Assembly: GCA_964242115.1 (NCBI GenBank)
Contig: CAXSZX010000001.1
Location: 634,020 to 698,019 of the forward strand
Length of the DNA stretch: 64,000 nucleotides
Direction: 5' to 3'
Source of the DNA: an uncultured Acetobacteraceae bacterium
GTDB lineage: Bacteria > Pseudomonadota > Alphaproteobacteria > Acetobacterales > Acetobacteraceae
Shown here: positions 971 through 57,780 of the stretch, piece by piece
Layout: each line of letters opens with the position of its first letter
How positions within the stretch are numbered: the stretch's first letter is position 1
The notes under the pieces: generated by a model
What the model saw: the letters and a program-made list of their open reading frames with translations, nothing else
Database searches by the model: none
What the model was told of the DNA's origin: nothing
Made by a program: the position numbers and the translations under genes

Positions 971-1112
971 GCAAGGAAGCAAGGCCTTCTTTTCTGAAGA
1001 AAAGAAGCAAAAGACTTTTGGTCCGGCTGTCGCGGAGTTTCCTTCAGCCAGTACTCCAGGGAACAAAAGTTTTTTGGTTCTTTTTTTCAAAAAAGAACCG
1101 CTTGCTTTGCCT
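971..1112. repeat. MITE/REP-like palindromic element, copy R1
   Basis: Left hairpin arm CTTCTTTTC-TGAA-GAAAAGAAG, core GCTGTCGCGG, right arm GGTTCTTTTTTT-C-AAAAAAGAACC. Lies 30 bp after the stop of the Wzc-like gene. Confidence 0.85.
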
Positions 1113-1141
1113 GTCACCGGCCAAAACCTGAGACGGATGGT

Positions 1142-2287
1142 ATGAGAGGCACGATGCGCGTCGCGTTGCTGCAGAACTTCGTAGCGCCCTACAGGGTCCT
1201 CTTCTACGAGCGGCTCGCCGCCAAGGTCGGCGCGTTCCGCGTGTTCGTCTCCACGCCGATGGAGAGCGACCGCAACTGGGCGGTTGAATGGGGCACGCTG
1301 GACGTGGCCGTGCAACGCAACCTGACGCTGCACCGGCCGTACCGCGACAGCCTCGGCTTCTCGCGCGTGCTGCAGCTCCACGTGCCGTACGACACCATCC
1401 CGCGCCTGCTGCGATTCCGCCCGGACGCGGTCATCTCGGTGGAGCTCGGCGCGCGCAGCCTACAGGCGGTGCTCTATAAAAAGCTGCGGCCGCGCGTGCG
1501 CCTGCTGATCTGGTGCAAGCTGTCCGAACACAGCGAGCGCAACTGGGGACGCGCGCGCACCGCGCTCCGGCGCTACATCCTCGGCCATGCCGACGCCGTG
1601 CTGGTCAACGGCGAGAGCGGCGCGCGCTACGTGGCCCGCTTTGGCGTGCCGGACCACGCCATCCACCGCATCAACCAGCCGGTCGATGTCAGCCGTTTTG
1701 CCGCGGTGCCCCGCACCCGCGACGAGGGCCTGGCCTGCCGCCTGCTGTGTGCCGGCACGCTGACCGCGCGCAAGGGACTGGTGCCGTTCGTCCAAGCCGT
1801 CATCGCCTGGGCGCGGGCCAACCCGGACCGCCAGGTCGAGATCTGGTGGCTGGGCGACGGCGAGCTTGCCGGCGAGCTCGCCGCCCAGGTTCTGCCGCCC
1901 AACCTCACGCAGCGTTTCTGCGGCGCCGTGCCCTACGACGACATGCCGGCCTACTACGCCCAGTGCGACCTGCTCGCCTTTCCGAGCCTACTCGACGAAT
2001 GGGGCCTGGTGGTCAACGAGGCGATGGCGGCCGGCCTGCCGGTGCTGGGCAGCGTGCTGGCCCAGGCGGTCACCGAACTGGTGGAGGATGGCCAGACCGG
2101 CTGGACGTTCGACCCTTCCGACCCGGCCGCCATGCGACAGGCCATCGAGCGCACACTCGATACGCCGCCGGACAGGATGGCGGCGATGCGCGCGCTGGCG
2201 CGCCGGCGTATCGCGAGGCTGACGCCGGAGAGCGCTGCGGCTCGGATTGCAGATGCGCTTGAAGCGAAGCAAGCAGTTCTTTTTTGA
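1142..2287 (+). CDS. Glycosyltransferase family 4 (EPS biosynthesis)
   Basis: 381-aa ORF with GT4-like C-terminal domain (E..GLVVNEAMAAGLPVLGS). The stop codon TGA lies inside repeat copy R2. Confidence 0.75.
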   Translation: MRGTMRVALLQNFVAPYRVLFYERLAAKVGAFRVFVSTPMESDRNWAVEWGTLDVAVQRNLTLHRPYRDSLGFSRVLQLHVPYDTIPRLLRFRPDAVISVELGARSLQAVLYKKLRPRVRLLIWCKLSEHSERNWGRARTALRRYILGHADAVLVNGESGARYVARFGVPDHAIHRINQPVDVSRFAAVPRTRDEGLACRLLCAGTLTARKGLVPFVQAVIAWARANPDRQVEIWWLGDGELAGELAAQVLPPNLTQRFCGAVPYDDMPAYYAQCDLLAFPSLLDEWGLVVNEAMAAGLPVLGSVLAQAVTELVEDGQTGWTFDPSDPAAMRQAIERTLDTPPDRMAAMRALARRRIARLTPESAAARIADALEAKQAVLF

Positions 2288-2408
2288 AAAAAAGAACCAA
2301 AAAACTTTTGACTCCGCTGTCGCGCGCTCGCCGGGGAAAACCGCGACAGCCGCAGTGAAAGCTTTTTGCTTCTTTTCTCGAAAAAGAAGGCCTTCGCTTC
2401 CTTCCGTC
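2266..2408. repeat. MITE/REP-like element, copy R2
   Basis: Both hairpin arms are present. The core forms a palindrome (CTGTCGCG...CGCGACAG). Supplies the TGA stop of the glycosyltransferase. Confidence 0.85.
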
Positions 2409-2428
2409 GACTGCAGCAGGACACGCAG

Positions 2429-3651: not shown

Positions 3652-3790
3652 GCAAGGAAGGCAAGGCCTTCTTTTCTGAAGAAAAGAAGCAAAAGACTTC
3701 TTTCCCTGCTGTCGCGAAGGTTCTGCAGCACGTACCCAAGTGAGCAAAAGTTTTTTGGTTCTTTTTTCAAAAAAGAACCGCTTGCCTTTC
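3652..3790. repeat. MITE/REP-like element, copy R3 (canonical)
   Basis: Nearly identical to R1; 15 bp after the ATPase stop. Confidence 0.9.
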
Positions 3791-3825
3791 TGTTACAGCT
3801 CAACTGCCGCCGCACGCGTCGTCGG

Positions 3826-4790: not shown

Positions 4791-4822
4791 TCTGTTCCTC
4801 GCGTCATGGACAGTGCAGTCAG

Positions 4823-4951
4823 GCAAGCAGTTCTTTTTTGAAAAAAAGAACCAAAAAACTTTTGTTCCCTTGGGCGCGTGCTGCAGAAACCTCCGCGACA
4901 GCGGGGACAAAAGCTTTTTGCTTCTTTTTCTCGAAAAAGAAGCGCTTGCCT
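4823..4951. repeat. MITE/REP-like element, copy R4
   Basis: Arms plus a CGCGACAG core (inverted orientation). Confidence 0.85.
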
Positions 4952-6566
4952 AAACCTTGCTAGCCTCCTCGGCCACCAGCTCCTTCTTCGACAGCTTGCC
5001 GATCATCGTCTTAGGCAGCTCGTCACGTATTTCCACCTCGCGCGGCAGCTCGATCTTGCTGACGTAATCACCGAGAAAAGCGCGCAGCTCTTCGGCCGTC
5101 GCCGTGGTCCCGTCCTTCAACGTCACGAACGCTTTCGGCGCCTGGCCACGATACGCATCCGGCACGCCGATCACCGTCGCCTCGCGCACCGAGGGGTGCT
5201 GGTACAGCGCTTCCTCCAGCACGCGTGGATACACGTTGTAGCCGCCGCAGATGATCAGGTCCTTGATGCGGTCGACGATGAACAGGTAGCCGTCCTCGTC
5301 GAGGTAGCCGACGTCGCCGGTGCGCAGGCTCCCGTCGATCATCACACGCGCCGTCTCGTCGGGGCGGTTCCAGTAGCCGCGCATCACCTGCGGACCGCGG
5401 ATGCAGATCTCGCCGCGCTCGCCCTGCGGCATCAGGCGGGAGGGGTCGTCCAGCCCGCGTATCTCGATGGTGGTCTCCGCCATCGGCAGGCCGGCCGAGC
5501 CGTCCTTGTAGGTGCGGCCAGGTGGCGTGACACTGACCGAGGGCGAGGTCTCCGACAGGCCGTAGCCCTCCATCAGCCAGCAGCCGGTCATCGCCATGAA
5601 GCGGCTGCGCAGCTCCATTGGCAACGGCGCGCCGCCCGAGCAGCACACCTGCACGCAGCTGAGGTCCAGGTTCGCCTTGTGAGCGGCCTCGGTCAGCGCG
5701 CCGAAGATGGTGGGCACGGCGGGCAGGATAGTGGGCCGGCAGCGCGCGATGGTGGCCAGCACCTGGGCCAGTTCGAAGCGCGGCAGCAGCACCAGGGCGG
5801 CCGCACTCTGCACGCCGGCGAGCATCACCGAGGTCAGCGCGAAGACGTGGAACAGCGGCAGCACGCCGAGGATGCTGTCGGCCCCGCGCGGCCGGCTGCC
5901 GATCGCCATCCAGTTCTGCATGGCGTTGGCGGTGAGGTTGGCGTGTGTCAGCTCGGCGCCCTTCGGCACGCCGGTGGTGCCGCCGGTGTACTGCAGCACC
6001 GCGACGCTGGCCGGGTCGATCGTCACGGCGTCGGGCACCGCGGTGCCGCGCATGACGGCGGTCGCGCGCAGCGAGACGCCGTCGTCCGGCACGGACGCGA
6101 TCTCCGCCCGTTTGGCGATGCGGAACGCCTGGCCCTTCAGCCAGGGCAGCGCGTCGGCGAGGGAGCAGACGACGATCCGGCGCAGACCGGTGCGCGACGC
6201 CACCGCCGCCACCTTCGGGTAGACCGCTTTGAGGTCGATGGTGACCATCACCTCGGTGCCCGAATCGGTAATCTGGTGGGCCAGCTCGCGCTCGACGTAG
6301 AGCGGGTTGAAGTTGACCACGATGCCGCCGGCGCGCAGCACGGCGAAGAAGAACACCACCGAGTGCGGCGTGTTGGGCAGGCACAGCCCCACGCGGGTGC
6401 CGGGTGCGACGCCGATGTCCTGCAGGCCGCGCGTCGCCCGCGTCACTGCTTCGTCCAGCTGCCGGTAGGTCCAGCGCCTGCCCATGAAGTCGATGGCGGG
6501 CCGGTCCGGGAAATCGCGCACCGCGTCCTCGAGCAGGGCGGGCACTGGGCGGGCGGCGATCGGCAT
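4950..6566 (-). CDS. AMP-dependent synthetase/ligase (long-chain fatty acid-CoA ligase-like)
   Basis: 538 aa with AMP-binding motifs YTGGTTGVPKGAELTH, GYGLSE and TGDVGYLDEDGYLFIVDRIKDLI. Confidence 0.85.
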   Translation of the reverse strand: MPIAARPVPALLEDAVRDFPDRPAIDFMGRRWTYRQLDEAVTRATRGLQDIGVAPGTRVGLCLPNTPHSVVFFFAVLRAGGIVVNFNPLYVERELAHQITDSGTEVMVTIDLKAVYPKVAAVASRTGLRRIVVCSLADALPWLKGQAFRIAKRAEIASVPDDGVSLRATAVMRGTAVPDAVTIDPASVAVLQYTGGTTGVPKGAELTHANLTANAMQNWMAIGSRPRGADSILGVLPLFHVFALTSVMLAGVQSAAALVLLPRFELAQVLATIARCRPTILPAVPTIFGALTEAAHKANLDLSCVQVCCSGGAPLPMELRSRFMAMTGCWLMEGYGLSETSPSVSVTPPGRTYKDGSAGLPMAETTIEIRGLDDPSRLMPQGERGEICIRGPQVMRGYWNRPDETARVMIDGSLRTGDVGYLDEDGYLFIVDRIKDLIICGGYNVYPRVLEEALYQHPSVREATVIGVPDAYRGQAPKAFVTLKDGTTATAEELRAFLGDYVSKIELPREVEIRDELPKTMIGKLSKKELVAEEASKV

Positions 6567-12296: not shown

Positions 12297-12607
12297 GCAA
12301 GGAAGCAGTTCTTTTTAAGTGTCCGTTTGCAAAATCGCTTGGCGGCCATCTGTCGCGATGTCTCTGCTTCGGTGCTTACAGCCATAAAGGCTCGGCCTGC
12401 CCGCTCAAGCAGGTGGCGCAGGCAAGCAGATCCGCTCCGACGCCCTAAAACCACAGCAGTTGACACACCAAGCTAATTTTGCAGACCGACACTGAAAGAA
12501 GAAACAAACGACTTTCGTTCTCCGAGTACGCGCTGGCCAAGAAGTCCGCGACAGCAGAGAAAAAAGTTTTGCTTCTTTTTTTCAAAAAAGAAGGCCTTGC
12601 TTACTTT
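12296..12607. repeat. Long/composite MITE-like element R5: truncated arm+core and core+arm separated by ~190 bp
   Basis: A GGCAAGGAAGCAGTTCTTTTT arm follows the M13 peptidase stop. ...CGCGACAGCAGAGAAAAAAGTTTTGCTTCTTTTTTTCAAAAAAGAAGGCCTTGC lies at the far end. Confidence 0.6.
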
Positions 12608-13452
12608 CCTATGAGCGCGTTTAGGATCTCCCCCGAGCGCGTCAACGCCAGCGAGTAGTGCCCCTCGCCCTCAAGCAGCCGGATTTTCGCCGGCAAATCT
12701 GCATACGCGCTCAAAGTCGCAGGCGGCACCACGATGTCCGCCGAGCCGTGCCAGATGCCGACCGGAGCACGCATGCTGGCCAGGTTGAAGCCCCAGTCGC
12801 TCGCGTAGATGCGTGCGTCCGAAGCAGCGCCGGCCACGCCATGCCGCAGGCCTTCCGCCCAGGCGGCAATCAGGCCAGCTCGGCGTGCTTGTGACAGGCA
12901 CGCGGCGTCGGCTGGGGTGCTCGCACCCTCCAGCACGCGATGCGGGTCGAACAGGCCGACGCGGATGCCTTGCCGGATGCAAGTCATCAAAGCGTAGGCC
13001 GATGTCGGGTGCAGCCCGAGCCACTGCAGGCGGCGCAGGCCTTGCCCGAGGGCAGCGTCGGGCGGGGCCGCGCCAGGTGTCAGCGGCGGCAGCGGGCTGA
13101 TCAGCGCGGTGCCCGCCACCCGGTTCAGCAGGTGTGCGCAGGCGACGGCGTAGGGCGCGCCGCCGGAGACGCCGACGACGTAGAAGCGCTCCACGCCGAG
13201 GTGGTCGGCCAGGGCAGTGACATCCGCCGGCCAGTCGAGCAGGCGGCGGCGCGGCTGGGGTGAGGAGTACCCGTAACCGGGGCGGTCGATCGCGATCAGC
13301 CGCAGCTTGATGCCGTCCACCACGGCGGCTTCCAGGCGGGAGGCGGGCCAGCCGTGGAAGTAGAAGGCTGGCGGGGCCGAGGGATCGCCGGTGATGGCGT
13401 AGCTGAGGGTGCGGCCATCGGGCAGCAGGAGTTGGTCGTCGGGTGGGGGCAC
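12601..13452 (-). CDS. Alpha/beta hydrolase (proline iminopeptidase-like)
   Basis: HGWPASRLE and GVSGGAPY motifs. A GTG start is assumed at 13452. The track ORF continues upstream only through repeat R6. Confidence 0.6.
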   Translation of the reverse strand: MPPPDDQLLLPDGRTLSYAITGDPSAPPAFYFHGWPASRLEAAVVDGIKLRLIAIDRPGYGYSSPQPRRRLLDWPADVTALADHLGVERFYVVGVSGGAPYAVACAHLLNRVAGTALISPLPPLTPGAAPPDAALGQGLRRLQWLGLHPTSAYALMTCIRQGIRVGLFDPHRVLEGASTPADAACLSQARRAGLIAAWAEGLRHGVAGAASDARIYASDWGFNLASMRAPVGIWHGSADIVVPPATLSAYADLPAKIRLLEGEGHYSLALTRSGEILNALIGK

Positions 13453-13461
13453 GGCGAGGAA

Positions 13462-13630
13462 GTAAGCGGTTCTTTTTCGAAAAAAAGAACCAAAAACTTT
13501 CGTCGCCTGAGTGCGAGGCCCAGCAGAAGCGCACGGCCGCCGAAAGCCGAACGCAAGCTTCATCACGGCATGTCGAGAGACACCAAGTGTTTTTTGGTTC
13601 TTTTTTTCCAAGAAAGAACCGCTTGTGCTG
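13462..13630. repeat. MITE/REP-like element, copy R6 (longer central region)
   Basis: Both arms are recognisable. Confidence 0.75.
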
Positions 13631-13778
13631 CCTCTACTAAGAATCGCCGAAACGACTTCCGGCGCTGCGTGACCTGCTCGGAGTGAGGTCGTTTCAGCCG
13701 AACGGGTGCACGGACCGGCAGTCAACCGGTCCGTGCGCCAAACTCGTTCCTGAGTGCGTCAGCAGGCTGGCTGACGCA

Positions 13779-15002: not shown

Positions 15003-15526
15003 ATAAAATAAACCTCTCGCGAGAAACCGGCCAAAAAAACCGGCTGCGTTGCCGCGATGTCTGTCTACACAGACGCGTGAGGCGATGCAACCACAGATCA
15101 CGATTTAATACAGATTTCTGTGGATGTTCGTTCGGCGTTGTAAAACCTGAATCAAAACGAACACTGTTCAGTTGAGTGCCGAACTTGTTTTGTTTCCTGC
15201 TTGTGCTCACTATGCAATACGCCGAACGGCGCTGCCTTTACGCCGTCATCCATCGAGCTGGATGCGCGGCGAGATCCCCGATAACGGGCAGTCCCCGAAG
15301 ATGTCAGCCGTATGGAGATGGGCGATGGGCGTCCGCGCGTCAGCCGGACGCTACTCACCTAGCGTCGGTCTGTCGCCAACCATGAACCGTTTCCATCAGC
15401 ACGGGACTGGCGAAACATGCTGCTGGTCCGGCAATGGCGAGCCGCTCTGATGCAAACACCTTCGCCGCTACCTGTCCGACTGTGTAACAACGGCGGCCCT
15501 AGGTCCTGACCCTGTCGACGTTCGGC

Positions 15527-15662
15527 AAGGAAAGCAAGACCTGCTTTTTTGAAAACCAGCAAAAAACTTTTGGTCCTGCTGTCGCGGAGTTTCCGCCAGC
15601 GTGCACTCAAGGAAGCAAAAGTTTTTGGTTCTCTTTTTCAAAACGAACTGCTTGCCTTGCCT
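15527..15662. repeat. MITE/REP-like element, copy R7 (diverged arms)
   Basis: GCTGTCGCGGAGTTTCC core. Confidence 0.75.
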
Positions 15663-15906
15663 TTCTCCATGCGACGTTTCGAGCCGTAGCCATCAGGGCA
15701 AAACATCGTTGCGGGAACAATGCAAAACGCATCGCTGCCGGCGTTTGAACGTCAAGCTCCGGCATCGATCAGGTTGCCCACGCGATTGGAAGCGCAGGCT
15801 TGCTGTCTCCTTTCCGCAGGCTTCATGCGACCTTAGGAGATGCCTCGCGTTCTTACCCGCTCACAGGCCACGCCGTGGGCGCGCGCTGTGGCATCAGGGA
15901 GAGCGC

Positions 15907-16448: not shown

Positions 16449-16482
16449 GACCGGCGTCTAGCACGCGCGTCTGCCGCAGCAG

Positions 16483-16628
16483 AAGCAAGGCCTTCTTTTT
16501 CGAGAAAAAGAAGCAAAAAGCTTTTGCTGCGGCTGTCGCGGACGGCTGAAACGACACGTCTCAGCAGCACGCACCTGCAGAGAGCAAAGATTTGGTTTTT
16601 TTTTCGAAAAAGAACCGCTTGCTTGCTT
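16483..16628. repeat. MITE/REP-like element, copy R8
   Basis: CGAG-loop arm variant with a GCTGAAACGACAC central subfamily. Lies between the convergent DUF4142 and ltaE genes. Confidence 0.85.
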
Positions 16629-17682
16629 ACGCCGCCTGCCGCGCCGCCTGCGTCTCGCACAGGCCCAAAAACCGGCCCACCTCCGCCTCGGTGGTGGCAA
16701 AGCTGGTTACCAGGCGCACCACCGGCCGGCTCTCCCCCGCAACGTCGATCCACCGGTAGAACACCGCGCCGGCCGCCTGCAACGCGTCGATCAGCTCGTC
16801 CGGCATCGCCACGAACAGCTCGTTGGCCTGCACCGGCGCCACCAGCCTCACGCCCGGCAGGCGCGAGAGGCCCGACGAGAGCGCCTGCGCCATGGCGTTG
16901 GCATGGCGCGCGTTGCGCATCCACAAATCCCCCTCCAGGTAGGCGACCATCTGGGCGGAGAGGAACCGCATCTTCGACCAGAGCTGGCCGGCGCGCTTGC
17001 GGCGCCGCTCGAAGCCCGCGGCCAGCGCAGGGTTGAAGAACACCACCGCTTCGGCCGCCAGCGCGCCGTTCTTGGTGGCGCCGAACGAGAGCACGTCCAC
17101 CCCCGCCTTCCACGTCATCTCCGCCGGCGTGCAGCCGAGATGCGCCAGCGCGTTGCCGAAGCGGGCGCCGTCCATGTGCAGGTGCAGTCCGCGGCGCCGG
17201 CAGGCGCTGGCGATCTCGGCCACCTCCGCCTGGTCGTACACAGTGCCCCACTCGGTGGCCTGGGTGATGCTGACCGCCTCGGGCACCACGTGGTGCACGC
17301 CGCCGTCCACCGCGCGCGCCATTGCTCGCTCCACCTGCATGGCGGAGATGCGGCCGTCCGGCGCCGGCACGGTGATCAGCTTCGCGCCGCCCATGTAGAA
17401 CTCCGGCGCGCCGCACTCGTCGGTGGCGATGTGCGCCTCGTCGTGGCAGATCACCGCCCCATAGGGACGCACCAGGGTGGCCAAGGCCAGCGCGTTGGCC
17501 GCCGTGCCGGTTGCCACCGGATAGACGGCCAGGTCGGTGTCGAAGACGTCGCGCATCATCGCGGACAGGCGCGTGGTGGTCGGGTCGGCGCCGTAGGAGG
17601 GCACCGCGCCGGTGTTGGCAGTGGTGAGCGCTGCCAGGATTTCCGGCGAGAGCGGGGCGGTGTTGTCGCTGGCAAAGTTCAT
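16627..17682 (-). CDS. ltaE: Low-specificity L-threonine aldolase
   Basis: 351 aa, MNFASDNTAPLSPEIL..., SFGATKNG PLP-lysine motif. Confidence 0.85.
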   Translation of the reverse strand: MNFASDNTAPLSPEILAALTTANTGAVPSYGADPTTTRLSAMMRDVFDTDLAVYPVATGTAANALALATLVRPYGAVICHDEAHIATDECGAPEFYMGGAKLITVPAPDGRISAMQVERAMARAVDGGVHHVVPEAVSITQATEWGTVYDQAEVAEIASACRRRGLHLHMDGARFGNALAHLGCTPAEMTWKAGVDVLSFGATKNGALAAEAVVFFNPALAAGFERRRKRAGQLWSKMRFLSAQMVAYLEGDLWMRNARHANAMAQALSSGLSRLPGVRLVAPVQANELFVAMPDELIDALQAAGAVFYRWIDVAGESRPVVRLVTSFATTEAEVGRFLGLCETQAARQAA

Positions 17683-18444: not shown

Positions 18445-18501
18445 TCAGGGATTGATAACGGAAGGCTCTGTCTTTTGGAAAAGGTGGCCGTCCGCAGGAC
18501 A

Positions 18502-18636
18502 AGGCAAGCGGTTCTTTTTCGAGAAAAAGAACCGGAAAACTTTTGTTTCCCAGGGGGCGTGCTGCAGAAAACTCCGCGACAGCAGGACCAACGTTTTTTG
18601 CTGCTTTTTTGAAAAAGCCGGCCTTGCTTCCTGGCC
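18502..18636. repeat. MITE/REP-like element, copy R9
   Basis: Arms plus CGCGACAG core; between dapB and marR. Confidence 0.8.
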
Positions 18637-19751: not shown

Positions 19752-19908
19752 GGCAGGAAGCAAGGCCTGCTTTGTTCAAAAAAGAGCAGCAAAAAACTTT
19801 TGGCCCGGCTGTCGTGGAATTTCCTGCAGCGCCCGGAGCGTAGGAACGCGCGTCGGAGGACCGCCGGGGCGACCTTTTCGATCGGACACGCGACATAACC
19901 GCTTGCCT
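19752..19908. repeat. MITE/REP-like element, copy R10 (CTGC/GCAG stem variant, degenerate right arm)
   Basis: Seen directly in sequence. Confidence 0.65.
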
Positions 19909-19987
19909 TCTACCCCGGCCGGTCAAGATCTTGGGCAAACAGACCGCGCCCTGTTCGGCGCCCACGCGGCACAGAAGGACGCGCGAC

Positions 19988-33014: not shown

Positions 33015-33032
33015 TGCCTCAACACTTGGCAG

Positions 33033-37459: not shown

Positions 37460-37461
37460 GT

Positions 37462-37603: not shown

Positions 37604-37607
37604 AGCT

Positions 37608-38084: not shown

Positions 38085-38176
38085 GTGGTTTCCTTTGTTG
38101 GCGCTCTACGCTGCGCCGGTGCGGAACGGGGCGCTGCGCGGCGTGGTTGCCATGGCGGTCAACACTTCGGCGCGAA

Positions 38177-39650: not shown

Positions 39651-39685
39651 GATGAGCGGCTTGGGTGCGGGCTGGCAAATTCAGG

Positions 39686-39838
39686 AGGAAGCAAAGCCTC
39701 CTTTTTCGAGAAAAAGAAGCAAAAAGCTTTTGCGCCGGCTGTCGCGGACAGCTGAAACGACACGCCTCACCAACGCACACCTACGAGCACAAAAGTTTTT
39801 TGGTTCTTTTTTTCAAAAAAGAACCGCTTGCCTTGCCT
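39686..39838. repeat. MITE/REP-like element, copy R22
   Basis: Abuts the 5-prime end of the permease gene. Confidence 0.85.
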
Positions 39839-39861
39839 CGTCCAGCTCTAACGCCTGATCC

Positions 39862-41275: not shown

Positions 41276-41311
41276 TGTGTGATAGAAGACGTAAGACTTT
41301 CGGCGCCCGGA

Positions 41312-41448
41312 AAGCAAGCAAGTCCTGCCCTTTTGAAAAAAGCAGCAAAAACTTCGTTCCCTGGAGCGCGTGCTGCAGCAACCTCCGCGACAGCGGGACC
41401 AAAAGTTTTTTGCTGTTTCCAAAAAAGCAGGCCTTGCCTTCCTTGCCG
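41312..41448. repeat. MITE/REP-like element, copy R23 (CTGC/GCAG variant)
   Basis: Seen directly in sequence. Confidence 0.75.
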
Positions 41449-45555: not shown

Positions 45556-46265
45556 TGCAATCTCCGATCGAGGAAAGCGGTCGAGCGACCTGGGTTGATT
45601 GGGTTTTCTGGAAGCCAGAACAATCGCGCAGAGCGAAATTCATGCCGAGCAGGCATTGTCTGGCCGCGGGAGCAACTGCTGGCCGCCGCAACAGGTGCCG
45701 GTCTGATGGCGCCAAATCGTCACGAACATACTCGTCAGTGATAGTTACTTTGTCAAGAAATTCTATCGGGCGCTCATAGGATCGCTGCCAAACTGACGCA
45801 GAACCCAAAGCTGAACGTGCAAGCATTTACTTAGCTCCAGGAAGAGGGTTGCGTGAATTGCAAACACTCGGGATGTTGACGATGAAGCGATGGTTGACGT
45901 CAGGATGAATGACTGACTGTGCGTTCGGTAGACCCTGCTGCAGCCTGCAGCTGTTGCAAGTGGGCAAGATCACGTCATTGCTGCCCTGACTAATCAGAGT
46001 CGCTTACGAATGTCCGTCGAACCGAAAACACAATCATCGTGTTCGATGAGACGCAACACCTGATCGAGACCGGCCCGAGACGCATCCGTCGAACTGGGCG
46101 TTTCATCAAGAAGCTATCCAAAGCGAGCCTGCGTTCGGCTCGCCGCCGCTGCAGAGCCTGACCGGTGAACGTTCAATCCATGCGCTGGATGCCCGAGGCT
46201 TCCACGTTTACGCGTCCGATAACGACCACCCTTGGGTCTTCCAGAGCTGCCGGCCTCGCCACGCC

Positions 46266-46316
46266 GCGACAGCCGCACCGGAAGTTTTGCTGCTTTGAAA
46301 AAAGCCGGCCTTGCTG
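46266..46316. repeat. MITE/REP-like half element R24 (core + arm)
   Basis: Seen directly in sequence. Confidence 0.6.
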
Positions 46317-46383
46317 TCTTCGCCGAGCCGTCAGGAAACCAAAGGCTCGACGTTGCACTGGTCATGCCCCGTCGCCTCCCAAC

Positions 46384-47621: not shown

Positions 47622-47757
47622 GCAAGAAAGCAAGGCCTGCTGTTTTGAAAAAAGCAGCAAGAAACTTTTACTCCCGGGTGCACGCTGCAAGAAACTCCGA
47701 GACAGCAGAACCAAAAGTTTTTTGCTGCTTTTTTTCAAAAAAGCAGGCCTTGCTTTC
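47622..47757. repeat. MITE/REP-like element, copy R25 (CTGC/GCAG variant)
   Basis: Starts 3 bp after the MFS transporter stop. Confidence 0.85.
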
Positions 47758-47799
47758 TTTCTTTGGGCCCAAGCCGAACAGTTGCGAGGAGGCACGGCC

Positions 47800-48582
47800 A
47801 TGATCCTGTACGACCACCCGCTTTCGTCTTACGCCCAGAAGGTGAAGATCGCGCTCCGCGAAAAAGGCGTCGCGTTCGAGCGCATGTTGCCGGAGGATTT
47901 CGGCACCGGCCGGCGCGACACGGCGTTCGCCGCCGCTAACCCGCGCGGCGAAGTGCCCGTGCTGCTACCGGACGGCAAGACGCCGATCTTCGACTCCACC
48001 GTCATCCTGGAATACATCGAGGAACGCTGGCCCGAGCCGCCGCTGCTGCCTGCTGACAAGCTGGCGCGCGCGCAAGCGCGAATGACCGAAGACGTGTGCG
48101 ACACACAATACGAAGCCGTCAACTGGGGTTTTGGCGAGCTGCTGTGGTTCCGGCGCGCCGATGGAGCGCTCGCGGAGACGCTGAAGGCAGCCGCGGCGCG
48201 CGACACGCAGGCACTGCAGCGGTGGCTCACCGAGCGGCTGGGAAATGCGGACTGGTTCGGCGGCGAACGCTTCGGTTGGGCGGACGCGGCGGCCGCACCG
48301 ATGGTCAACCGGTCCGTACATTACGGACTCGGCCCGGATCGGGGCTCGCCGCTGACGCGGTGGCACGCGCGGTTGCGGGAGCGCCCGGCGGTGGCGGAGA
48401 CGTTCGCCGAGTTCGACGCCGCCGCCGCCCGGATGGCAGCCGCGGCCGACTTCTATCGCACGGGCGGCCGCCGGCGGGAGTATCGCGATCACCGCTTGGA
48501 GTGGATGATCCGTGCTGGGGGGATCGACGTGGTGCTTATTGGGCTTCGCGAGAAAACGATTCGGTTTTCCTGGCCCGGATAA
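47800..48582 (+). CDS. Glutathione S-transferase
   Basis: MILYDHPLSSYAQKVKIAL, GEVPVL, and the SD sequence AGGAGG 7 nt upstream. Confidence 0.85.
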   Translation: MILYDHPLSSYAQKVKIALREKGVAFERMLPEDFGTGRRDTAFAAANPRGEVPVLLPDGKTPIFDSTVILEYIEERWPEPPLLPADKLARAQARMTEDVCDTQYEAVNWGFGELLWFRRADGALAETLKAAAARDTQALQRWLTERLGNADWFGGERFGWADAAAAPMVNRSVHYGLGPDRGSPLTRWHARLRERPAVAETFAEFDAAAARMAAAADFYRTGGRRREYRDHRLEWMIRAGGIDVVLIGLREKTIRFSWPG

Positions 48583-48716
48583 GGAAGCAAGCAGTTCTTT
48601 TTTGAAAAAAAGAACCAAAAAACTTTTGTTCCCTTGGGCGCGCGTTGCAGGAAATGACGGCGACAGCAGGACCAAAAATCTTTTGCTTCCTTTTTTCAGA
48701 AAAGAGCGCCTTGCTT
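48582..48716. repeat. MITE/REP-like element, copy R26
   Basis: Lies between the GST stop and the giant protein stop. Confidence 0.85.
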
Positions 48717-48718
48717 TC

Positions 48719-51700
48719 TTACCCGTGATGCACCAGCACAAACCAATCCTGATGCGCCGTCTCTGTCGGTAGGCTGCGCGACGTTGCAGGTTCTGCCGAC
48801 CCACTCTGTGCCACGATGTCGATCGTCAGACCGGCCACGTTGGCGAAGTCGCTCGTCAGGTGGATCGCTTCGTTGCTGATCGCGCCGCCCTTATAATCGA
48901 TCACGTAGGTGCCGCTGGCGCTGCCCGCGGCGATCGGCCCGAAATTGCCGGCGGTGACGCCGCTGCCGGACAGGTCGCGCCCGTTGATGGTGCCGCCGTT
49001 CACCGTACTCTGCAGCGCGCCGCGCAGTGCGGCCGAGCCTGCAGCGCCGGTGTTTTCGACCTCGAAGTAGGCGGCGTGGCCTGCCGCCACCGCGATGGTG
49101 AGCGTGCCGTTCAGGTCCTGGATGGTGGTGCCGTTGACGCCCACGACGCTGAGCTGCGTGCCCTGACCGTCGATGGTGCCGGTGACGCCGGCGAACGCGT
49201 TGTAGGTGTTGCCGGTGCCGGCGGCAGTGTTGACGTAGTCGCCGGCCACCGTGAGCGTGGTGGAGCTGGTGTTCAGCGTGCCGCCGCCGATGGTCAGCGT
49301 GGAGACCGTGCTGTTGGCCGCGCCGTTGGCGCTGGCCAGCACGGCGGAGCTGCCCCTCGCACCGATGCTGAGCGCGCCGCCGGTGAGCGCAGCGGTGTCG
49401 GTGAAGCCGCCGTTGTCCAGCACCAGACCGGTGTTGTCCAGGCCGCCGGTAAAGGCGAGCGTGCCGCCGCTGACGGTGGCGATGGTGCCGCTGTTGGCGA
49501 ACGGGTCGGCGATGGTGGCTGTACCCCGGCCGGTCTGTTCGAACAGCCCGGTGCTGGTGAACGTGCCGGTGCCGGTGAGCGAGGACACGCCGGCGATGTC
49601 GAACACCCCGGCGTAGGTGAGCGAATCCGAGATGGCCAGCGACGCCCGGTTGATCAACGCGATCTCGCTGACGGTGATGGGCGCGGTGTCGGCCAGGGTG
49701 AAGCGGTTGTCGTCAAGGCAGAGCGTGCCGGTGCCGGTGACGGTCCCGGTGATGGTGTCGCGGCCGGTCAGGTCCAGCGTGCCGCCAGTGGCACTCAGCG
49801 TGCCGGCGCTGGCCAACCCGCCGGCGAGCGTGCCGAAGCCGGAGAGCAGCGAGGTCGCCCTGTCGTTGAGCAGCTTGGAGGTGAGGTCGCCGCCACCGAG
49901 CAGGATGGTGCCGGCGTTGGAGATGCCCAGCGTGGTGGTGTAGGAGCGATCGCCCAGGACCTGCAGCTGCGCGCGTGCTGCGATGGTGGTCAGGCTCGCC
50001 TCGATTGCGGTGCCGCCGAAGCTGACCGACGCGCCGGCGCCGGAGAGGATCAGGTCGGCGGAAAGGGTTTTCACCGCGGCGCCGGTGATGCTCAGCGTGG
50101 CACCGTCGCCGCTGGCGACCGCCGCGTAGGTGCCGCCGGTGAGCACGCCCGCGGCGCTGTCGTTGGTCAGCGTGGCGCCGTTAGAAAAGGTGACGTTGCT
50201 GCCGTCATCGGCCTGGATCAGGCCGGCGTTGGTGTAGGTGCCATTCTGGATGGCCAGCCCGCCAGTGCCCACGCCGAGCAGCTTGCCGGTGGCGGTGTTT
50301 GCCCCGGTGCTGCCCAGGCTGATGGTCAGCCCGCTGGTGCCGGTCGACGAGATGGTGCCGGCGTTGACCAGCGTGAGCTGGCCGGCGCCGATTTGGCCGG
50401 AACCCTCGATGGTGTTGTTGACGTTGTCGAGCACGTCGGCGGTGGCGACGCCGTAGATGCGGTCGGCGGTGTTGGCATCCGAAAATGCGAGGATGCCGCC
50501 GCCGTTCAACGTCAGGGTCGGGCTGTTGATGACCAGGTCGCTGTCGTAGCCGGTGGAGTTCAGCCCGATGGTGCCCTCGTTGGTGATCGTGCCGAGCACA
50601 GTCATGGTGCTGCCGGTCGCCACTTCCAGCGCGCCCTTCAGCACCACGGCGTGCGCGGAGCCGTCGATCGTCGTCTGCCCGTTTGCGCTGAAGTCGCCGG
50701 TGCCGGTGCTCAGCAACAGGCCGCCCTGCACGTCGCCGCCGTTGAGGTAGATGGTGCTGCTTGCGGCCAGGATGGTGCCGGTGGCGTTGCTGACGGTGCT
50801 CTGCAGTGCCAGGCCGGCGGCACCGGTCGACTCGATCAGGCCGTCGTTGGTCACCACCGAACCGGTGCTGATGACGAGCTGGTTGCTGGCCCCTGTCGCG
50901 TCGATCACGCCGGCTGTGCCGTTGACGAGCGTGAGCTGGCCGGCGCCGATCTGGCCGGAGCCCTCAATAAGGTTGTTGAGGTTGTCGAGCACGTTGGTGC
51001 CGGACGCGCCGTATATGCGGTCTGCAGAGTTGTTGTCGGTGAGCTGGATCGTGCCGCCGCCGGTCAGCGTCACCGTTGGGCTGCCGACGATCAGGTCGCT
51101 GTCGTAGCCGGTGGAGTTCAGCCCGATGGTGCCCTCGTTGGTGATCGTGCCGAGCACAGTCATGGTGCTGCCGGTCGCCACTTCCAGCGCGCCCTTCAGC
51201 ACCACGGCGTGCGCGGAGCCGTCGATCGTCGTCTGCCCGTTTGCGCTGAAGTCGCCGGTGCCGGTGCTCAGCAACAGGCCGCCCTGCACGTCGCCGCCGT
51301 TGAGGTAGATGGTGCTGCTTGCGGCCAGGATGGTGCCGGTGGCGTTGCTGACGGTGCTCTGCAGTGCCAGGCCGGCGGCACCGGTCGACTCGATCAGGCC
51401 GTCGTTGGTCACCACTGAACCGGTGCTGATGACGAGCTGGTTGTTGGCCCCCGTCGCGTCGATCACGCCGGCCGCGCCGTTGACGAGCATGAGCTGGCCG
51501 GCGCCGATCTGGCCGGAGCCCTCGATGAGGTTGTTGACGTTGTCGAGCACGTTGGTGCCGGACGCGCCGTATATGCGGTCTGCGGTGTTGTTGTCGGTGA
51601 GCTGGATGGTGCCGCCGCCGGTCAGCGTCACCGTGGGGCTGCCGACGACCAGGTCGCTGTCGTAGCCGCTGGAGTTCAGCCCGATGGTGCCGTCGTTGGT

Positions 51701-53062
51701 GATGGTGCCGAGCAGGGTCAGCGTCTCGCCGGTGTTCACCTCGACGGTGCCGAAATTGCTCAGGTTCTGCAGCGTGCTCTGGCTGGTGACCGCGAACGAA
51801 CCGCCGCCGCTGCTCTCCAGCATGCCGCCGACGATTGTGGCGCCGTTCAGCTGTACCGTGCCGCCGGCAGAGAGGATGGTGGCGGTGCCGGCGTCGTCGA
51901 TCACCGATTGCAGGATCAGCCCCTGGGGGCCCGCCGCTTCCAGCAGCCCGTTGTTCTGCAGCGAGCTGGTCTGAATGTAGAGCGCGTTGGCGGTGCCGGT
52001 GGCGCTGATGGTGCCGTCGTTGACCAGGTTGAGCTGGCCGGCGCCGATGGTGCCGCTGCCGGAGATGGTGTTGTTGAGGTTGACCAGGGTGTCGCCGGCG
52101 TTGCCGCCGTAGAGACGGTTGGCGGCATCCGCGTCGCCCAGCACGACGGACCCGCCGCCGGTCAGCGTGACCGTGCTGGTCAGCGTGCCGGTGGCGCCGA
52201 ACACCACGTCGCTGTTGTAACCGGTGGATTGCACCGACAGCACGCCGGTGTTGTTCAGCGTGCCCAGCACGCTCAGCGTCTCGCCGGTAGCCACCACGAG
52301 GCTGCCGGCGTTGGTCACCTGGTGGGCGGTGCCGTCCAGTGTGGAGTGCGACTCCACCTGGACCGAGGACCCGGCAGTGCTGCTGAGCGTGCCGCCCAGG
52401 ATGGTGGCGCCGTTGAGGAAGACGTTGCCGCCGTTGGCCTGTATTCTGCCGGTGGTGCCGTCGTTGATGGCGGTCTGCAGCACCAGCCCGCCGCTGCCCT
52501 TCGTCGCCTCGAAGATGCCGGCGTTGCTGGCGGTCAGGGACCCGGTGTTGATGATCAGCTGGTTGCTCGCGCTTGCGTCCACCAGGCCGCCTGCGTCGTT
52601 GGTGAAGGCGAGCGCCGTGCCGGCACCGATCTGCCCGGCGCCGACGATCTTGTCGTTCACGTTGACGAACTGGTCGCCTGCGGTGCCAGCCACGATGATG
52701 TTGTTGTCGTTGCCGTTACCCAACAGGATGGTGCCGGCGCCGTTCAGCGTGACTGTCGGGGCACCGATGACCAGCGCGCTGTTGTAGCCTGTGGAGTTCA
52801 GCGACAGCGTGCCGGCGACGGACAACGTGCTGGCAGCCGACGAGCCGACGGTGAGCGTCTCGCCGGTGCTGACGGCCAGCGTGTCAAGCTTGCCCAGGGT
52901 GAGCGCCTGCACCGCGTCGTTGGTAGACACCGCGATGGAGGCGGCCGAACTCGTGTTGATGGTCACAGTGTCGGACCCACCGGGAACGCCGTTGGGCGAC
53001 CAGTTCGCAGCCGTGTTGAAGTTGCCGTCGCCGGCTGCGCCGGTCCAGGTATATGCGGTCAT
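48719..53062 (-). CDS. Giant (1447 aa) Gly/Thr/Asn-rich beta-helix repeat protein (adhesin-like / autotransporter-associated beta-strand repeat type), probably secreted
   Basis: Long ORF with ~186-aa internal repeats, including two ~97%-identical 558-bp units. N-terminus is MTAYTWTGAAGDGNFNTAANWSPNGVPGG. Confidence 0.75.
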   Translation of the reverse strand: MTAYTWTGAAGDGNFNTAANWSPNGVPGGSDTVTINTSSAASIAVSTNDAVQALTLGKLDTLAVSTGETLTVGSSAASTLSVAGTLSLNSTGYNSALVIGAPTVTLNGAGTILLGNGNDNNIIVAGTAGDQFVNVNDKIVGAGQIGAGTALAFTNDAGGLVDASASNQLIINTGSLTASNAGIFEATKGSGGLVLQTAINDGTTGRIQANGGNVFLNGATILGGTLSSTAGSSVQVESHSTLDGTAHQVTNAGSLVVATGETLSVLGTLNNTGVLSVQSTGYNSDVVFGATGTLTSTVTLTGGGSVVLGDADAANRLYGGNAGDTLVNLNNTISGSGTIGAGQLNLVNDGTISATGTANALYIQTSSLQNNGLLEAAGPQGLILQSVIDDAGTATILSAGGTVQLNGATIVGGMLESSGGGSFAVTSQSTLQNLSNFGTVEVNTGETLTLLGTITNDGTIGLNSSGYDSDLVVGSPTVTLTGGGTIQLTDNNTADRIYGASGTNVLDNVNNLIEGSGQIGAGQLMLVNGAAGVIDATGANNQLVISTGSVVTNDGLIESTGAAGLALQSTVSNATGTILAASSTIYLNGGDVQGGLLLSTGTGDFSANGQTTIDGSAHAVVLKGALEVATGSTMTVLGTITNEGTIGLNSTGYDSDLIVGSPTVTLTGGGTIQLTDNNSADRIYGASGTNVLDNLNNLIEGSGQIGAGQLTLVNGTAGVIDATGASNQLVISTGSVVTNDGLIESTGAAGLALQSTVSNATGTILAASSTIYLNGGDVQGGLLLSTGTGDFSANGQTTIDGSAHAVVLKGALEVATGSTMTVLGTITNEGTIGLNSTGYDSDLVINSPTLTLNGGGILAFSDANTADRIYGVATADVLDNVNNTIEGSGQIGAGQLTLVNAGTISSTGTSGLTISLGSTGANTATGKLLGVGTGGLAIQNGTYTNAGLIQADDGSNVTFSNGATLTNDSAAGVLTGGTYAAVASGDGATLSITGAAVKTLSADLILSGAGASVSFGGTAIEASLTTIAARAQLQVLGDRSYTTTLGISNAGTILLGGGDLTSKLLNDRATSLLSGFGTLAGGLASAGTLSATGGTLDLTGRDTITGTVTGTGTLCLDDNRFTLADTAPITVSEIALINRASLAISDSLTYAGVFDIAGVSSLTGTGTFTSTGLFEQTGRGTATIADPFANSGTIATVSGGTLAFTGGLDNTGLVLDNGGFTDTAALTGGALSIGARGSSAVLASANGAANSTVSTLTIGGGTLNTSSTTLTVAGDYVNTAAGTGNTYNAFAGVTGTIDGQGTQLSVVGVNGTTIQDLNGTLTIAVAAGHAAYFEVENTGAAGSAALRGALQSTVNGGTINGRDLSGSGVTAGNFGPIAAGSASGTYVIDYKGGAISNEAIHLTSDFANVAGLTIDIVAQSGSAEPATSRSLPTETAHQDWFVLVHHG
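50553..51665 (-). repeat. Near-identical 558-bp tandem duplication inside the giant repeat protein gene
   Basis: Antisense track ORFs 50553..50750 and 51111..51308 are identical. 50751..51107 versus 51309..51665 differ at only a few residues. Confidence 0.8.
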
Positions 53063-53334
53063 TGTTGTTCCCTCCGAATGCCATCAGCGCGGCTCGTTTC
53101 GAAGGCTGGCTAACATCATGGCATAAGCGTTCCCCACCAATCAGCGGTTGTTATTTGGGTGGGCCGTTTCAGTCTGCACGGCGATTGTGCATCCAGAAAT
53201 CGGTGGTGGTTTTTATCACTGGCATCAAGCCTTCGTTGCAAGGTGTAGACTACTGCGTCCGGAGGGAGGCTGCCGGCGTCGGCTGATGCGAGGTGGGTTT
53301 GCAAGCGAAGCGAGAGGTCCCGGGACACGCCGCA

Positions 53335-53398
53335 GAAGATTCCGCGACAGCGATGCCAAAAGTTTTTTGTTTTTTTGCAAAAAGCAGGCCTTGCTTTC
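53335..53398. repeat. MITE/REP-like half element R27
   Basis: Seen directly in sequence. Confidence 0.6.
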
Positions 53399-53811
53399 TT
53401 ACTGAACCGTTAACATGCGACCACCACAACGAGAGCGGCCGACTTCACACTACCTGTCGGTCTAGTGGCATACTCATCGGTCGGCGTAACGTTTCTCCTC
53501 GCGGGCGTGATCAGGCCAGGCCTACCTGTTGCGGTTGAGGCCCTGACGTGTTGCGAGGCCGGCACGACGCGATGAGTCGTCGCACTTCTGCACGCACAAT
53601 CTTAATCATTACGCGGTAACGTGTCGTAATCATCTTGACGTCTCTAAAAAGAGACGGTAGAAAAGACCATCGCTTTGCAACCGCTGCCCCGCTCGTTTGT
53701 ATCCCAGCTTTTTCTTCCGGCGCCGATGGCGTGCGCGGCGTGGACACGTCGCGAAGAAATGCATGAGACCCACGAGAACGGGGTGCGGCTCACCTGTTAC
53801 GGGACCGGACC

Positions 53812-55508: not shown

Positions 55509-55580
55509 TCGCTTCGGGGATTATGGGACAGGTAAGATCGTCCTGCGCCAAGTGTCCTGGTTTTGTCTTTCAACTTCCGG

Positions 55581-55722
55581 GGAGCAAGCAAGGCCTTCTT
55601 TTCTGAAGAAAAGAAGCAAAAGACGTTTGTCCCTGCTGTCGCGGAGTTTTCTGCAGCGTCCGCCCTAGAGTACAAAAGTTTTTTGGTCCTTTTTTCGAAA
55701 AAGAATTGCTTGCTTTCTTGTT
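55581..55722. repeat. MITE/REP-like element, copy R28 (canonical)
   Basis: Seen directly in sequence. Confidence 0.9.
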
Positions 55723-55733: not shown

Positions 55734-56696
55734 CTACACGCTGTTGGCTTCACGCCGAGCATCCTCGTCCAGCAAAGCTTCGATCGACACCCTGAGCCAC
55801 CTCAGACTACCACCCAGAGCCACCTGCACGTTTGACGCACCTGGCGTAAGGATGGTGCGTCCCCGGTGCTGAGGCGTGCTGTCCACCGACACTGTTCCTT
55901 TGACAAGGTAGGTCCGCTCGGGGGCTTGTGCCACGAGCACCGTGATCGCATCGTGAGGCAAGCAGCCGTCGATGCCTTCGGCCTCCCGGTAGTGGTCCAT
56001 GTAGGCCGCGTGTGACCGAGCGATCAGCATTCCATGCTCGGTTCTGCTGTTTTGCTGATAGGCAGCCATTGTAGAGCGTGGAAGTTGCACCTTGCGGCAG
56101 AGGTCGAGTGGCACGATGGTGACAGGCAGGCCAAGGCCAAGCGTTATTCGCAACGCATCCGGATCGCAATAGGCGTTGAACTCCGCCGACGGCGTGATGT
56201 TGCCGACGTCGAAATACACCCCGGACATCAGCACGATACGTTCGACGGCGGACCCGTACCAGGCAACCAGACCGGGAATGTTCGTGGCCGGCCCTAGGCC
56301 GATCAAAACCACCGAGGAGACGGAACGCGGCGGCGTGCTGCCCAGCATGACGACCGGCGCGCCGGTCAGGCTCGCAACCAGGGCCTGGTCCATATGACCG
56401 GTGGCGCCTCCCAGTCCGTCCGAGCCGTGCACGTGGCGGGCGTCCCTGGTAAAGCCGTCTTGCGCACACGACGCACCGGTCAGCACCGTCCAGCACGCCG
56501 AGCGGCCGAGCAGCCCGCGGAACAGCAGCGCGTTGCGCGTCGCGATATCCACCGGAACGTTGCCAAAAACTGTCGAGATGGTCAGGTCGGTGCCGAACAG
56601 GCGGCTGGCGAGGAGGAGTGCGAGGCCGTCATCGACTCCCATGTCGGTATCGATGTGGACGTGCGTCAGAGGCTCACTCCCATACACTAGCTGCAT
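55734..56696 (-). CDS. Nucleoside hydrolase (inosine-uridine preferring type)
   Basis: DTDMGVDD aspartate cluster. Confidence 0.8.
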   Translation of the reverse strand: MQLVYGSEPLTHVHIDTDMGVDDGLALLLASRLFGTDLTISTVFGNVPVDIATRNALLFRGLLGRSACWTVLTGASCAQDGFTRDARHVHGSDGLGGATGHMDQALVASLTGAPVVMLGSTPPRSVSSVVLIGLGPATNIPGLVAWYGSAVERIVLMSGVYFDVGNITPSAEFNAYCDPDALRITLGLGLPVTIVPLDLCRKVQLPRSTMAAYQQNSRTEHGMLIARSHAAYMDHYREAEGIDGCLPHDAITVLVAQAPERTYLVKGTVSVDSTPQHRGRTILTPGASNVQVALGGSLRWLRVSIEALLDEDARREANSV

Positions 56697-56720
56697 TGCC
56701 TCGAACCCCGAGGCGTCGGG

Positions 56721-57640
56721 TCAGTCGATGCAGACCTCCCTGCGGTAAGGCAGGGCGGGTTGCGCGCCCGTCCGCGTCACACACACGCCGGACGCGGCGA
56801 TACCGAGCAGGGCAGCCTGATCCAGTCCCATGTCCTCGCAGAGCCCTGCTACGAGCCCGCCGATGAAGCAGTCGCCGGCCGCCGTGGTGTCCCGCACGGG
56901 CACCACGCGGGCAGGCAGTACGCGCTCGCCGGATATGTCAGAAAGCAGCACGCCTTTGGCGCCCAGCGTGACCACGACGTTGGCAACGCCGCGCTCACGC
57001 AACGCGCGGGCGGCGGCGACGGCGGAGTCGTGGTCGTGCACGCGAATGCCTGTCAGGCGTTCGGCCTCGCTCTCGTTGGGAATCAGGTAGTCGACCGCGG
57101 ACCACAGACCGGCCGGCAGAACCTCCGCGGGCGCCGGGTTGAGGACCACCCGGACGCCGCAGGATCGCGCCAACCGGGCTGCGCGGTCCACGGTAGCCAC
57201 CGGCACTTCCAACTGCAGCACGACGAAGGCGGAGCGGCCGATGAGCCCGGACGCGGCGTCGACGTCGGTGTCGGCGAGCGAGAGGTTGGCACCTTGCGCC
57301 ACCAGAATCCGGTTCTCGCCCGACGGTTCGACCATGATCATGGCGACGCCGGTGGGGCCCTCAGCGGTGCCGACATGTCCGACGTCGATGCCGTCGCGCC
57401 GCAAGGCTGCACGAAGCTGTGCGCCGAAACCGTCGTCGCCGACCTTGCCCACCATGGCAACGCGCGCGCCCATGCGGGCGAGCGCCACGGCCTGGTTGGC
57501 GCCCTTGCCGCCCTCGGCCACCGTGAAGCCGTCGGCGATGATCGTCTCGCCGGCGTCCGGCAGACGCGCCGCGCGCACCACCAGGTCCATGTTCAGGCTG
57601 CCGATCACGGTTGCGGAGCCGGCCAATGATTTCTCCAATT
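56721..57640 (-). CDS. rbsK: Ribokinase
   Basis: VIGSLNMDLV, GGKGANQAVA, TTAAGDCFIGG. Probable TTG/GTG start. Confidence 0.75.
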
Positions 57641-57647
57641 CAAAGTG

Positions 57648-57780
57648 AGCAAGGCCTGCTTGCTTGAAAAAAGCAGCAAAAAACATTCGGTAAGGCCGTG
57701 GTCGAGCTTCCCTCAGCGAATAGCCAAGAAAACACAAGTTTTTTGGTTCTATTTTTCAAAAAACAACTGCTTCCTTGCCT
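57648..57780. repeat. MITE/REP-like element, copy R29 (diverged)
   Basis: Lies between the ribokinase start and the TonB receptor stop. Confidence 0.75.

Follow-up and report, generated by a model that had tools for sequence, protein, structure and literature searches.

What keeps the two halves of a hairpin matched in a repeat that recurs along 64,000 nt of DNA from an uncultured Acetobacteraceae bacterium, and what reads the hairpin? The stretch (GenBank assembly GCA_964242115.1, contig CAXSZX010000001.1, positions 634,020 to 698,019; hereafter the window, taken at its full length) was the subject of an original prediction, according to which both halves of the repeat's stems change together, the folded hairpin is the functional unit, and the candidate roles are a transcription terminator, an mRNA 3′ stabilizer or a recognition structure for a transposase or nuclease. 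It was found that base pairing within each hairpin is under selection.

The window has a G+C content of 66 % and contains a single abundant repeat family, which is intergenic. A sequence-only hidden Markov model trained on 21 exact copies matched 52 arms at 28 loci, corresponding to ~4.3 kb or 6.7 % of the window. These comprise 23 inverted arm pairs, with the paired arms 120–160 nt apart, and five solitary or truncated copies; the leftmost arm begins at 971 and the rightmost finishes at 57782. A copy is ~140–160 bases long, occurs about once per 2.3 kb and consists of two imperfect inverted arms of ~50 nt flanking a variable centre, which may be short, long with CTGAAAC, or palindromic (at least three types). 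An arm read inwards opens with as many as three NAAG units (consensus G-R-A-R-G-N-A-A-G-C-A-A-G), followed by 2–3 variable bases, a 22-nt palindrome, CAAAAAACTTTTG and a short inverted repeat. The palindrome starts 2–3 nt past the conserved GCAAG and is made up of an A/T-rich 10-bp stem with the centre GA. The two arms of a copy differ systematically: the A end has GCAAGGCC, then CTTC or CTGC with GAAG or GCAG, then GGCTGTCGCGG, whereas the B end has GCAAGC(G/A)G, then GTTC with GAAC, then TTCCCTTGGG.

Selection on base pairing within the arm hairpins

Covariation was assessed in an alignment of the 51 window arms and in a larger alignment of 150 arms, in which 99 arms from ~14 related genomes were added. 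In the window alone, 93.2 % of the 10-bp stem was paired compared with 83.5±1.0 % in column shuffles. As predicted, the stem halves change together, with 41 double-changed cells against 14.2±2.7 in the shuffles (0/500) and 2–5 when the 3′ partners were slid; the covarying pairs were pair 1 (CG27/GC17), pair 3 (UA34/GC10), pair 9 (UA44/CG4) and pair 10 (UA33/CG9). The 150 arms gave 93.7 % pairing and 130 double-changed cells against 47.7±4.5 shuffled (0/500) and 10–26 slid. The original prediction had named the phylogenetic expectation as the decisive comparison. A tree-aware null, in which the per-column parsimony change counts were kept and placed independently on a neighbour-joining tree, did not reach the 128 observed double-changed cells in any of 500 replicates (11.1±5.7, maximum 52). 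Since covariation exceeds the shuffles, the slid partners and this null, selection on pairing within each arm is supported, and the result represents statistically secure evidence of hairpin selection in a bacterial repeat family. The arm stems are A/U-rich and weak (−7 to −10 kcal/mol), and their stability does not exceed that of dinucleotide shuffles, so the case for selection rests on the covariation rather than on stability.

The three stem classes originally described, CTTC/GAAG, GGTTC/GAACC and CTGC/GCAG, are all present across 971–57780, and the larger alignment added two more, GTCC/GGAC and CTAC/GTAG. They are not all independent events: the difference between CTTC and GTTC is one fixed feature distinguishing the A and B ends of a single element, and the CTGC/GCAG stems are an A-end subfamily. 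The further claim that TGAA and CGAG are loop variants changing independently of the stem proved mistaken, as both are compensated states of the two innermost pairs around the centre GA (TTTTTT GA AAAAAA, TTTTTC GA GAAAAA and TTTTCT GA AGAAAA).

Only seven stem haplotypes in the 150-arm set occur in multiple copies and multiple genomes (30, 13, 12, 8, 7, 7 and 2 copies). All seven are 10/10 paired, and each step from one haplotype to its neighbour is a compensated swap (pair 1, 3, 9 or 10), while the other haplotypes (~65) are singletons and mostly mismatched. Stem variants therefore follow subfamilies, with few events (at least 6–9 separate double changes) represented by many copies. By our estimate, the chance of six or more compensated swaps is ~1e-11, taking ~1/63 per event under independence. 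All four Watson–Crick pairs occur at pair 3 (UA98, GC17, CG12 and AU1), which disfavours a dimeric double-stranded DNA-binding protein reading each half-site and favours base pairing itself.

The minimum-free-energy fold of whole elements is a long hairpin pairing one arm with the other, and this was considered as the selected structure. It was rejected on the mismatch counts, which were 4.6 per 20 pairs for arm-to-arm pairing and 1.7 for the local hairpins. Local pairing was better in 27 of 32 elements and worse in none, and the two haplotypes within an element usually differ, each being self-complementary. The covariation tests, the paired haplotypes and this preference for local folding together bear out the prediction of a folded hairpin under selection.

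Whether the hairpin forms in DNA or RNA was addressed through the mismatches and the hairpin centre. G·T and A·C mismatches are equally frequent in the arm orientation of the 150-arm set (54:54), and in the transcribed sense no excess of G·U over A·C was found (9 versus 13, a comparison of low power). The innermost pair beside the 2-nt centre covaries (UA98/CG23), although it stays open in the folding models. A loop of 2 nt can be closed by a pyrimidine–purine pair in DNA hairpins, which RNA hairpins are not known to allow. The evidence leans towards a hairpin that would form in DNA.

One covariation pattern extends beyond the stem. In columns 25/34/50 and 26/33/51 of the 150-arm alignment, the third position, a purine, covaries with pairs 9 and 10 in a mirror-symmetric manner. 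Columns 50 and 51 form the loop of a small second hairpin, CAAAA...TTTTG (for example at window positions 16485–16530 and 979–1025), and their mirror patterns, G-A5-GAAGC-A5-G and AG-A4-GAAGC-A4-GA, are not explained by Watson–Crick pairing (C-G-G in 21 arms against C-G-A in 2; all 7 for the other variant). Subfamily linkage is the simplest reading. A structure more elaborate than a plain hairpin, for instance one with base triples, is hinted at; such triples would obey the rule yet clash with the outer stem.

Distribution and conservation in place among relatives

A pattern scan using one genome per species returned 22 stretches with at least 100 further arms. Nearly all were labelled as Acetobacteraceae, Rhodospirillales or uncultured Alphaproteobacteria, including lichen, bog and other metagenome-assembled genomes, and one was labelled Acidobacteria; as far as sampled, the family is restricted to Acetobacteraceae. 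Element density in the related genomes is similar to that of the window. The family is unusually dense, at about one copy per gene boundary, and its hosts are Acetobacteraceae of lichens and bogs, for the most part uncultured. An unannotated copy was found on a plasmid of the cultured species Pseudoroseomonas cervicalis (locus L031, 10001–10117; NZ_CP115852.1, 258700–258816), between yciI and an oxidoreductase gene and with both its GTTC and CTTC hairpins perfect, which would make experiments possible in a cultured host. All Rfam matches to the element in the window were far under the gathering threshold, and nothing describing this repeat was found in the literature on Acetobacteraceae miniature inverted-repeat transposable elements (MITEs) or repetitive extragenic palindromic (REP) elements. 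We hold with moderate confidence that the repeats are a previously undescribed non-coding intergenic family of the kind formed by MITEs and by REPINs, which are inverted REP doublets.

In relatives whose BacA is 95–96 % identical, the same elements are found at matching sites. To compare rates, adjacent non-coding DNA served as the control, split into A/T and G/C sites, in place of an earlier control with fourfold-degenerate sites that agreed in direction and was confounded by base composition. Pooled divergence at A/T sites rose from 0.044 in arms to 0.175 in element centres and 0.240 in intergenic DNA outside the elements (arms versus the other two classes, odds ratio 0.18, p=1e-18). At G/C sites the values were 0.091, 0.127 and 0.161, respectively (arms 0.091 versus 0.144 for the other classes, p=0.01). 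Arms of orthologous copies are kept ~4–5 times better than the adjacent non-coding DNA, and between the window and locus L026 the centres have diverged by 0.146 against 0.052 for the arms.

The changes that do occur between orthologous hairpins, ~20 in all, were single and uncompensated by eye, with no compensated double change and no switch of haplotype. This indicates that random gene conversion is not the main cause of the covariation and disfavours correction of quasipalindromes. Two levels of evidence can be separated, namely which copies multiply and what fixed sites retain.

Presence of the element also differs among relatives. The junction between bacA and a GDSL lipase gene is filled in the window and in the related loci L023, L024, L025 and L026, and is empty in the more distant L028, L029 and L030, where the bacA stop overlaps the lipase start. 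A 20-kb span of L029 was free of copies; L028, which is syntenic with it, has three or more insertion sites.

How the hairpins may be copied and read

The reading we prefer, to which we give about an even chance, is that of a REPIN- or MITE-like family in which copying depends on a DNA hairpin that is preserved at fixed sites as well. Function would reside in the intrastrand hairpin that each arm forms locally, most likely in DNA that is single-stranded or extruded as a cruciform. A fully paired hairpin would be required for copying to new sites, and new subfamilies would hence start from compensated stems, after which inserted copies would accumulate single uncompensated changes and decay slowly. 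The agent would most likely be a transposase that reads folded single-stranded DNA, as REP-associated tyrosine transposases (RAYTs) and the enzymes of the IS200/IS605 insertion sequences do. Long-term retention of intact arms at fixed sites would point to a further advantage for the host or the system.

A close comparison is with REPINs, which are inverted palindrome doublets with a less conserved spacer, are extragenic and commonly show compensatory changes (PMC3116915). REP-associated transposases read the folded single-stranded palindrome together with a conserved short motif just 5′ of it (PMC8266576). The element shares with REPINs its two inverted palindrome-bearing arms, less conserved spacer, extragenic location, very high copy number, hairpins kept by compensatory changes, more strongly decayed solitary arms, long vertical persistence and a short conserved motif immediately 5′ of the palindrome (PMC3116915, PMC8266576). 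It differs in having a GCAAG head after NAAG repeats rather than GTAG or CGTC, an A/T-rich palindrome within a G+C-rich genome, arms that differ systematically, and covariation in local hairpins rather than in a long arm-to-arm hairpin. Its density is a further difference, as is the lack of a RAYT: no such gene (Y1/HUH) was found in the window or in the gene tables of L023–L030, and Escherichia coli RayT had no match on Acetobacteraceae plasmids. With neither a GTAG/CGTC head nor a RAYT found, membership of the REP/REPIN group is not established. REPINs occur in Pseudomonas, Enterobacteria and Stenotrophomonas and are mobilized by RAYT/TnpA-REP transposases. Should a cognate transposase be found, systems of the REP/RAYT type would come to include a new head motif and A/T-rich hairpins.

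The element also resembles bacterial MITEs (Correia/NEMIS of Neisseria, ERIC, RUP and Nezha) in its length of 100–160 nt, terminal inverted repeats, non-coding nature, intergenic location and tendency to adjoin or overlap gene ends, where copies can donate signals to neighbouring genes. In contrast to MITEs, it has no detected target-site duplication, a search of ~0.4 Mb gave no parent insertion sequence sharing its ends, and its inverted repeats are internally palindromic, which is unneeded for DDE-type transposition. The subterminal hairpins of IS200/IS605 are likewise read as single-stranded DNA, have a 4–5-nt guide motif 5′ of the hairpin foot and leave no target duplication (PMC8266576). 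Those insertion sequences carry tnpA or tnpB and have asymmetric ends, whereas the element has no coding capacity and both of its ends are alike.

Several results weigh against the preferred reading. No transposase of any kind was detected in the window by Pfam, and none with matching ends in ~0.37–0.4 Mb of related loci. No target-site duplication was seen outside the termini; filled and empty sites have diverged too far for the boundaries to be placed. The position-specific composition of the arms, which reads G-N-A-A-G-C-A-A-G, 2–3 nt, then the palindrome, lacks the GTAG/CGTC head by which most REPs are defined. Recent insertion polymorphism was not seen either, with copies shared with relatives of 92 % DNA identity all at the same site, and a purely selfish element does not predict conservation in place. 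The argument for DNA over RNA is built on small counts and on the tolerance of DNA hairpins for 2-nt loops closed by a pyrimidine–purine pair. If no transposase exists, the strong conservation in place would demand a host function.

Insertion sequences of the IS30-like and IS5-like types lie inside or beside elements and interrupt copies in related loci (L024, 4838–6059; L025, 15056–15927). They were considered as sources of a parent transposase and rejected, as the element termini bear no relation to their inverted repeats (e.g. CTAGAGAGTGTTATG). Of the roles originally listed, a transposase-recognition structure nevertheless fits the family-level pattern best, even though no such enzyme was found.

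An unlikely alternative is that the elements act as RNA on behalf of the host, as bidirectional terminators or 3′-end protectors at nearly every transcription-unit end, with pairing selected locus by locus. The gene context, for which the gene map was confirmed with Pfam, favours this. Copies occupy 8–9 convergent, ~12 tandem and six divergent gaps; an element is present in every convergent gap of the window and in most between-operon tandem gaps, and tight operons have none. The arms sit between called genes, although several flanking open reading frames (ORFs) extend a few codons into an arm or end there. In 14 of the 27 arms facing gene 3′ ends, a stop codon lies −19 to +7 nt from GCAAG, at a distance of 0 in five cases and of 4 in another five, and the stops are in register with the terminal NAAG units, where N=T gives TAA-G (register examples at 4949, 12600, 26263, 33275 and 36597, and at 16622, 30865, 48587, 48714 and 57774). 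The drift of element centres while arms stay conserved would also agree with a role in RNA.

The structural evidence for such a role is poor. In addition to the weakness of the A/U-rich stems, no U-tract follows the arm hairpins, and a terminator scan of the window gave 15 sites against 16.1 expected, with no enrichment. RNAalifold returned no conserved or covarying central G+C stem, with only −6 kcal/mol. On the strength of the terminator scan and RNAalifold, a bidirectional terminator made from a central G+C stem with flanking A- and T-tracts was rejected. The element shares with intrinsic (Rho-independent) terminators a hairpin just past stop codons, and differs from them in that the stem is not G+C-rich and copies are also found upstream of genes. 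The six copies between divergent gene starts, the absence of obvious bias in A/B orientation relative to flanking genes (our reading, on small numbers), the failure of G·U to be favoured in the transcribed sense and the single, uncompensated changes in orthologous copies all point away from a role in RNA. The proposed role as a terminator or mRNA 3′ stabilizer thus received little support. A promoter function was also considered and rejected, as the scan of 30–49 kb gave no sigma-70-like sites.

It is quite improbable that the hairpins serve the host as double-stranded DNA, that is, as A/T-rich cruciform or bending sites in a G+C-rich chromosome at which gyrase or nucleoid proteins would attach, or at which supercoils between transcription units would be released. 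Roles of this kind have been proposed for some clusters of REPs and bacterial interspersed mosaic elements. The strand-symmetric mismatch pattern, the dyad symmetry that is perfect up to the centre, the occurrence of one copy per intergenic gap whatever the gene orientation and the strong protection of A/T sites in place would all be expected. However, ten A/T pairs extrude poorly unless supercoiling is high, and the compensated G/C swaps of the successful subfamilies are unexplained unless pairing itself is read.

A further and distinctly doubtful alternative is a domesticated genome-wide punctuation of this Acetobacteraceae clade, in which the elements would be more than resident selfish DNA. 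Paired A/T-rich DNA hairpins would be retained at almost all gene boundaries because they serve the host, for instance in topological insulation or as a non-canonical end-of-gene signal, with the in-register TAA-G stops supplied by the termini. Triples of the G·G-C and A·A-T kinds could form.

Least probable, and very improbable in our view, is a mutational by-product in which quasipalindrome template switching, an established process (PMC7202029), or gene conversion from the thousands of near-identical donors within the family changes both halves without selection, since 24 of the 51 window arms and most of the singleton haplotypes retain uncorrected mismatches (at least one per arm in the former) and orthologues show only single changes, so that correction and conversion must be too rare to explain the pattern.

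Individual copies and other features of the window

The 28 loci are listed in the table below. Some reading frames extend into copies. The glycosyltransferase ORF at 1142–2287 stops at a TGA within the left hairpin of the copy at 2261–2405, and its last eight codons are element-derived. The frame of the GDSL lipase (36521–37459) is open through the whole copy at 36589–36746, and an ATG in the centre of this copy would give the lipase an N-terminus resembling a signal peptide. In the composite copy at 23412–23735, unrelated sequence separates the arms. The G+C hairpin inserted in the copy at 33030–33283 is CCGCCTCAAGATCTTGAGGCGG (33140–33161), and this composite is conserved in L023 and L025.

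Table. Copies of the repeat element in the window, with strand and distinguishing features.
Position	Strand	Features
971–1113	+	A end then B end; stems CTTCTTTTCT/AGAAAAGAAG and GGTTC../..GAACC, each 10/10 paired
2261–2405		Palindromic centre GCTGTCGCG...CGCGACAGC
3653–3793	+	A then B
4815–4957	−	B then A; TAG stop of minus-strand AMP-binding gene adjoins GCAAG
12496–12608	−	Truncated: one intact A arm and remnant of centre; TAA stop of hydrolase gene adjoins GCAAG
13454–13634		Two GTTC-type arms; centre longer and divergent
15526–15663	+	Decayed CTGC-class A arm; flanked by divergent genes
16477–16630	+	Long-centre subfamily (GACGGCTGAAACGACAC); CGAG variant; flanked by convergent genes
18496–18635	−	B then A; B arm with CGAG variant, A arm of decayed CTGC class
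19752–19925	+	Decayed: CTGC-class A arm retained, B hairpin gone, terminus CCGCTTGCC left
23412–23735	−	Composite, 324 nt, between ybaB and recR; also in L025 and L023
25236–25376	+	A hairpin decayed here, perfect in orthologues L023–L025
26121–26271	−	CTGC-class A arm; B arm degenerate
28179–28339		Between divergent methyltransferase and RgpF genes
30857–30998		Palindromic centre; TAA of upstream gene within terminal GTAAGTAAGAAAG
33030–33283	+	Composite/nested: A arm, inserted G+C hairpin, partial arm, right CTTC arm
34361–34519	+	Long centre; between divergent M19 peptidase and flavin oxidoreductase genes; orthologous in L023–L026
36589–36746	−	Between bacA and GDSL lipase gene
37455–37610	+	Long centre; between convergent genes
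38174–38331	+	Long centre; between tandem minus-strand genes
39683–39839	+	Long centre; between divergent genes
41310–41445	−	Both arms with CTGC-class stems, partly decayed
46256–46322	−	Single decayed arm
47622–47761	−	Both arms with CTGC-class stems
48579–48722	−	Occupies entire convergent-gene gap; both TAA stops inside its terminal NAAG repeats
53300–53402	−	Truncated; one decayed CTGC-class arm
55580–55721	+	A then B; B arm decayed
57641–57782	+	CTGC-class A arm; TAG stop of TonB receptor gene adjoins right terminus

Three other features of the window were observed. The only Rfam match above threshold was the bacterial small signal recognition particle RNA (RF00169, 49.9 bits) at 20647–20745 on the plus strand, upstream of dnaX-ybaB-recR. 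Four overlapping copies of a 27-nt tandem repeat are present at 27117–27251, within a gene encoding a methyltransferase domain (26264–28126, minus strand). A 1447-aa ORF at 48719–53062 on the minus strand is made up of 558-nt tandem repeats that are up to 97 % identical. Its third-position G+C is very high, Pfam gave no significant domain, and it probably encodes a large repetitive surface or secreted protein.

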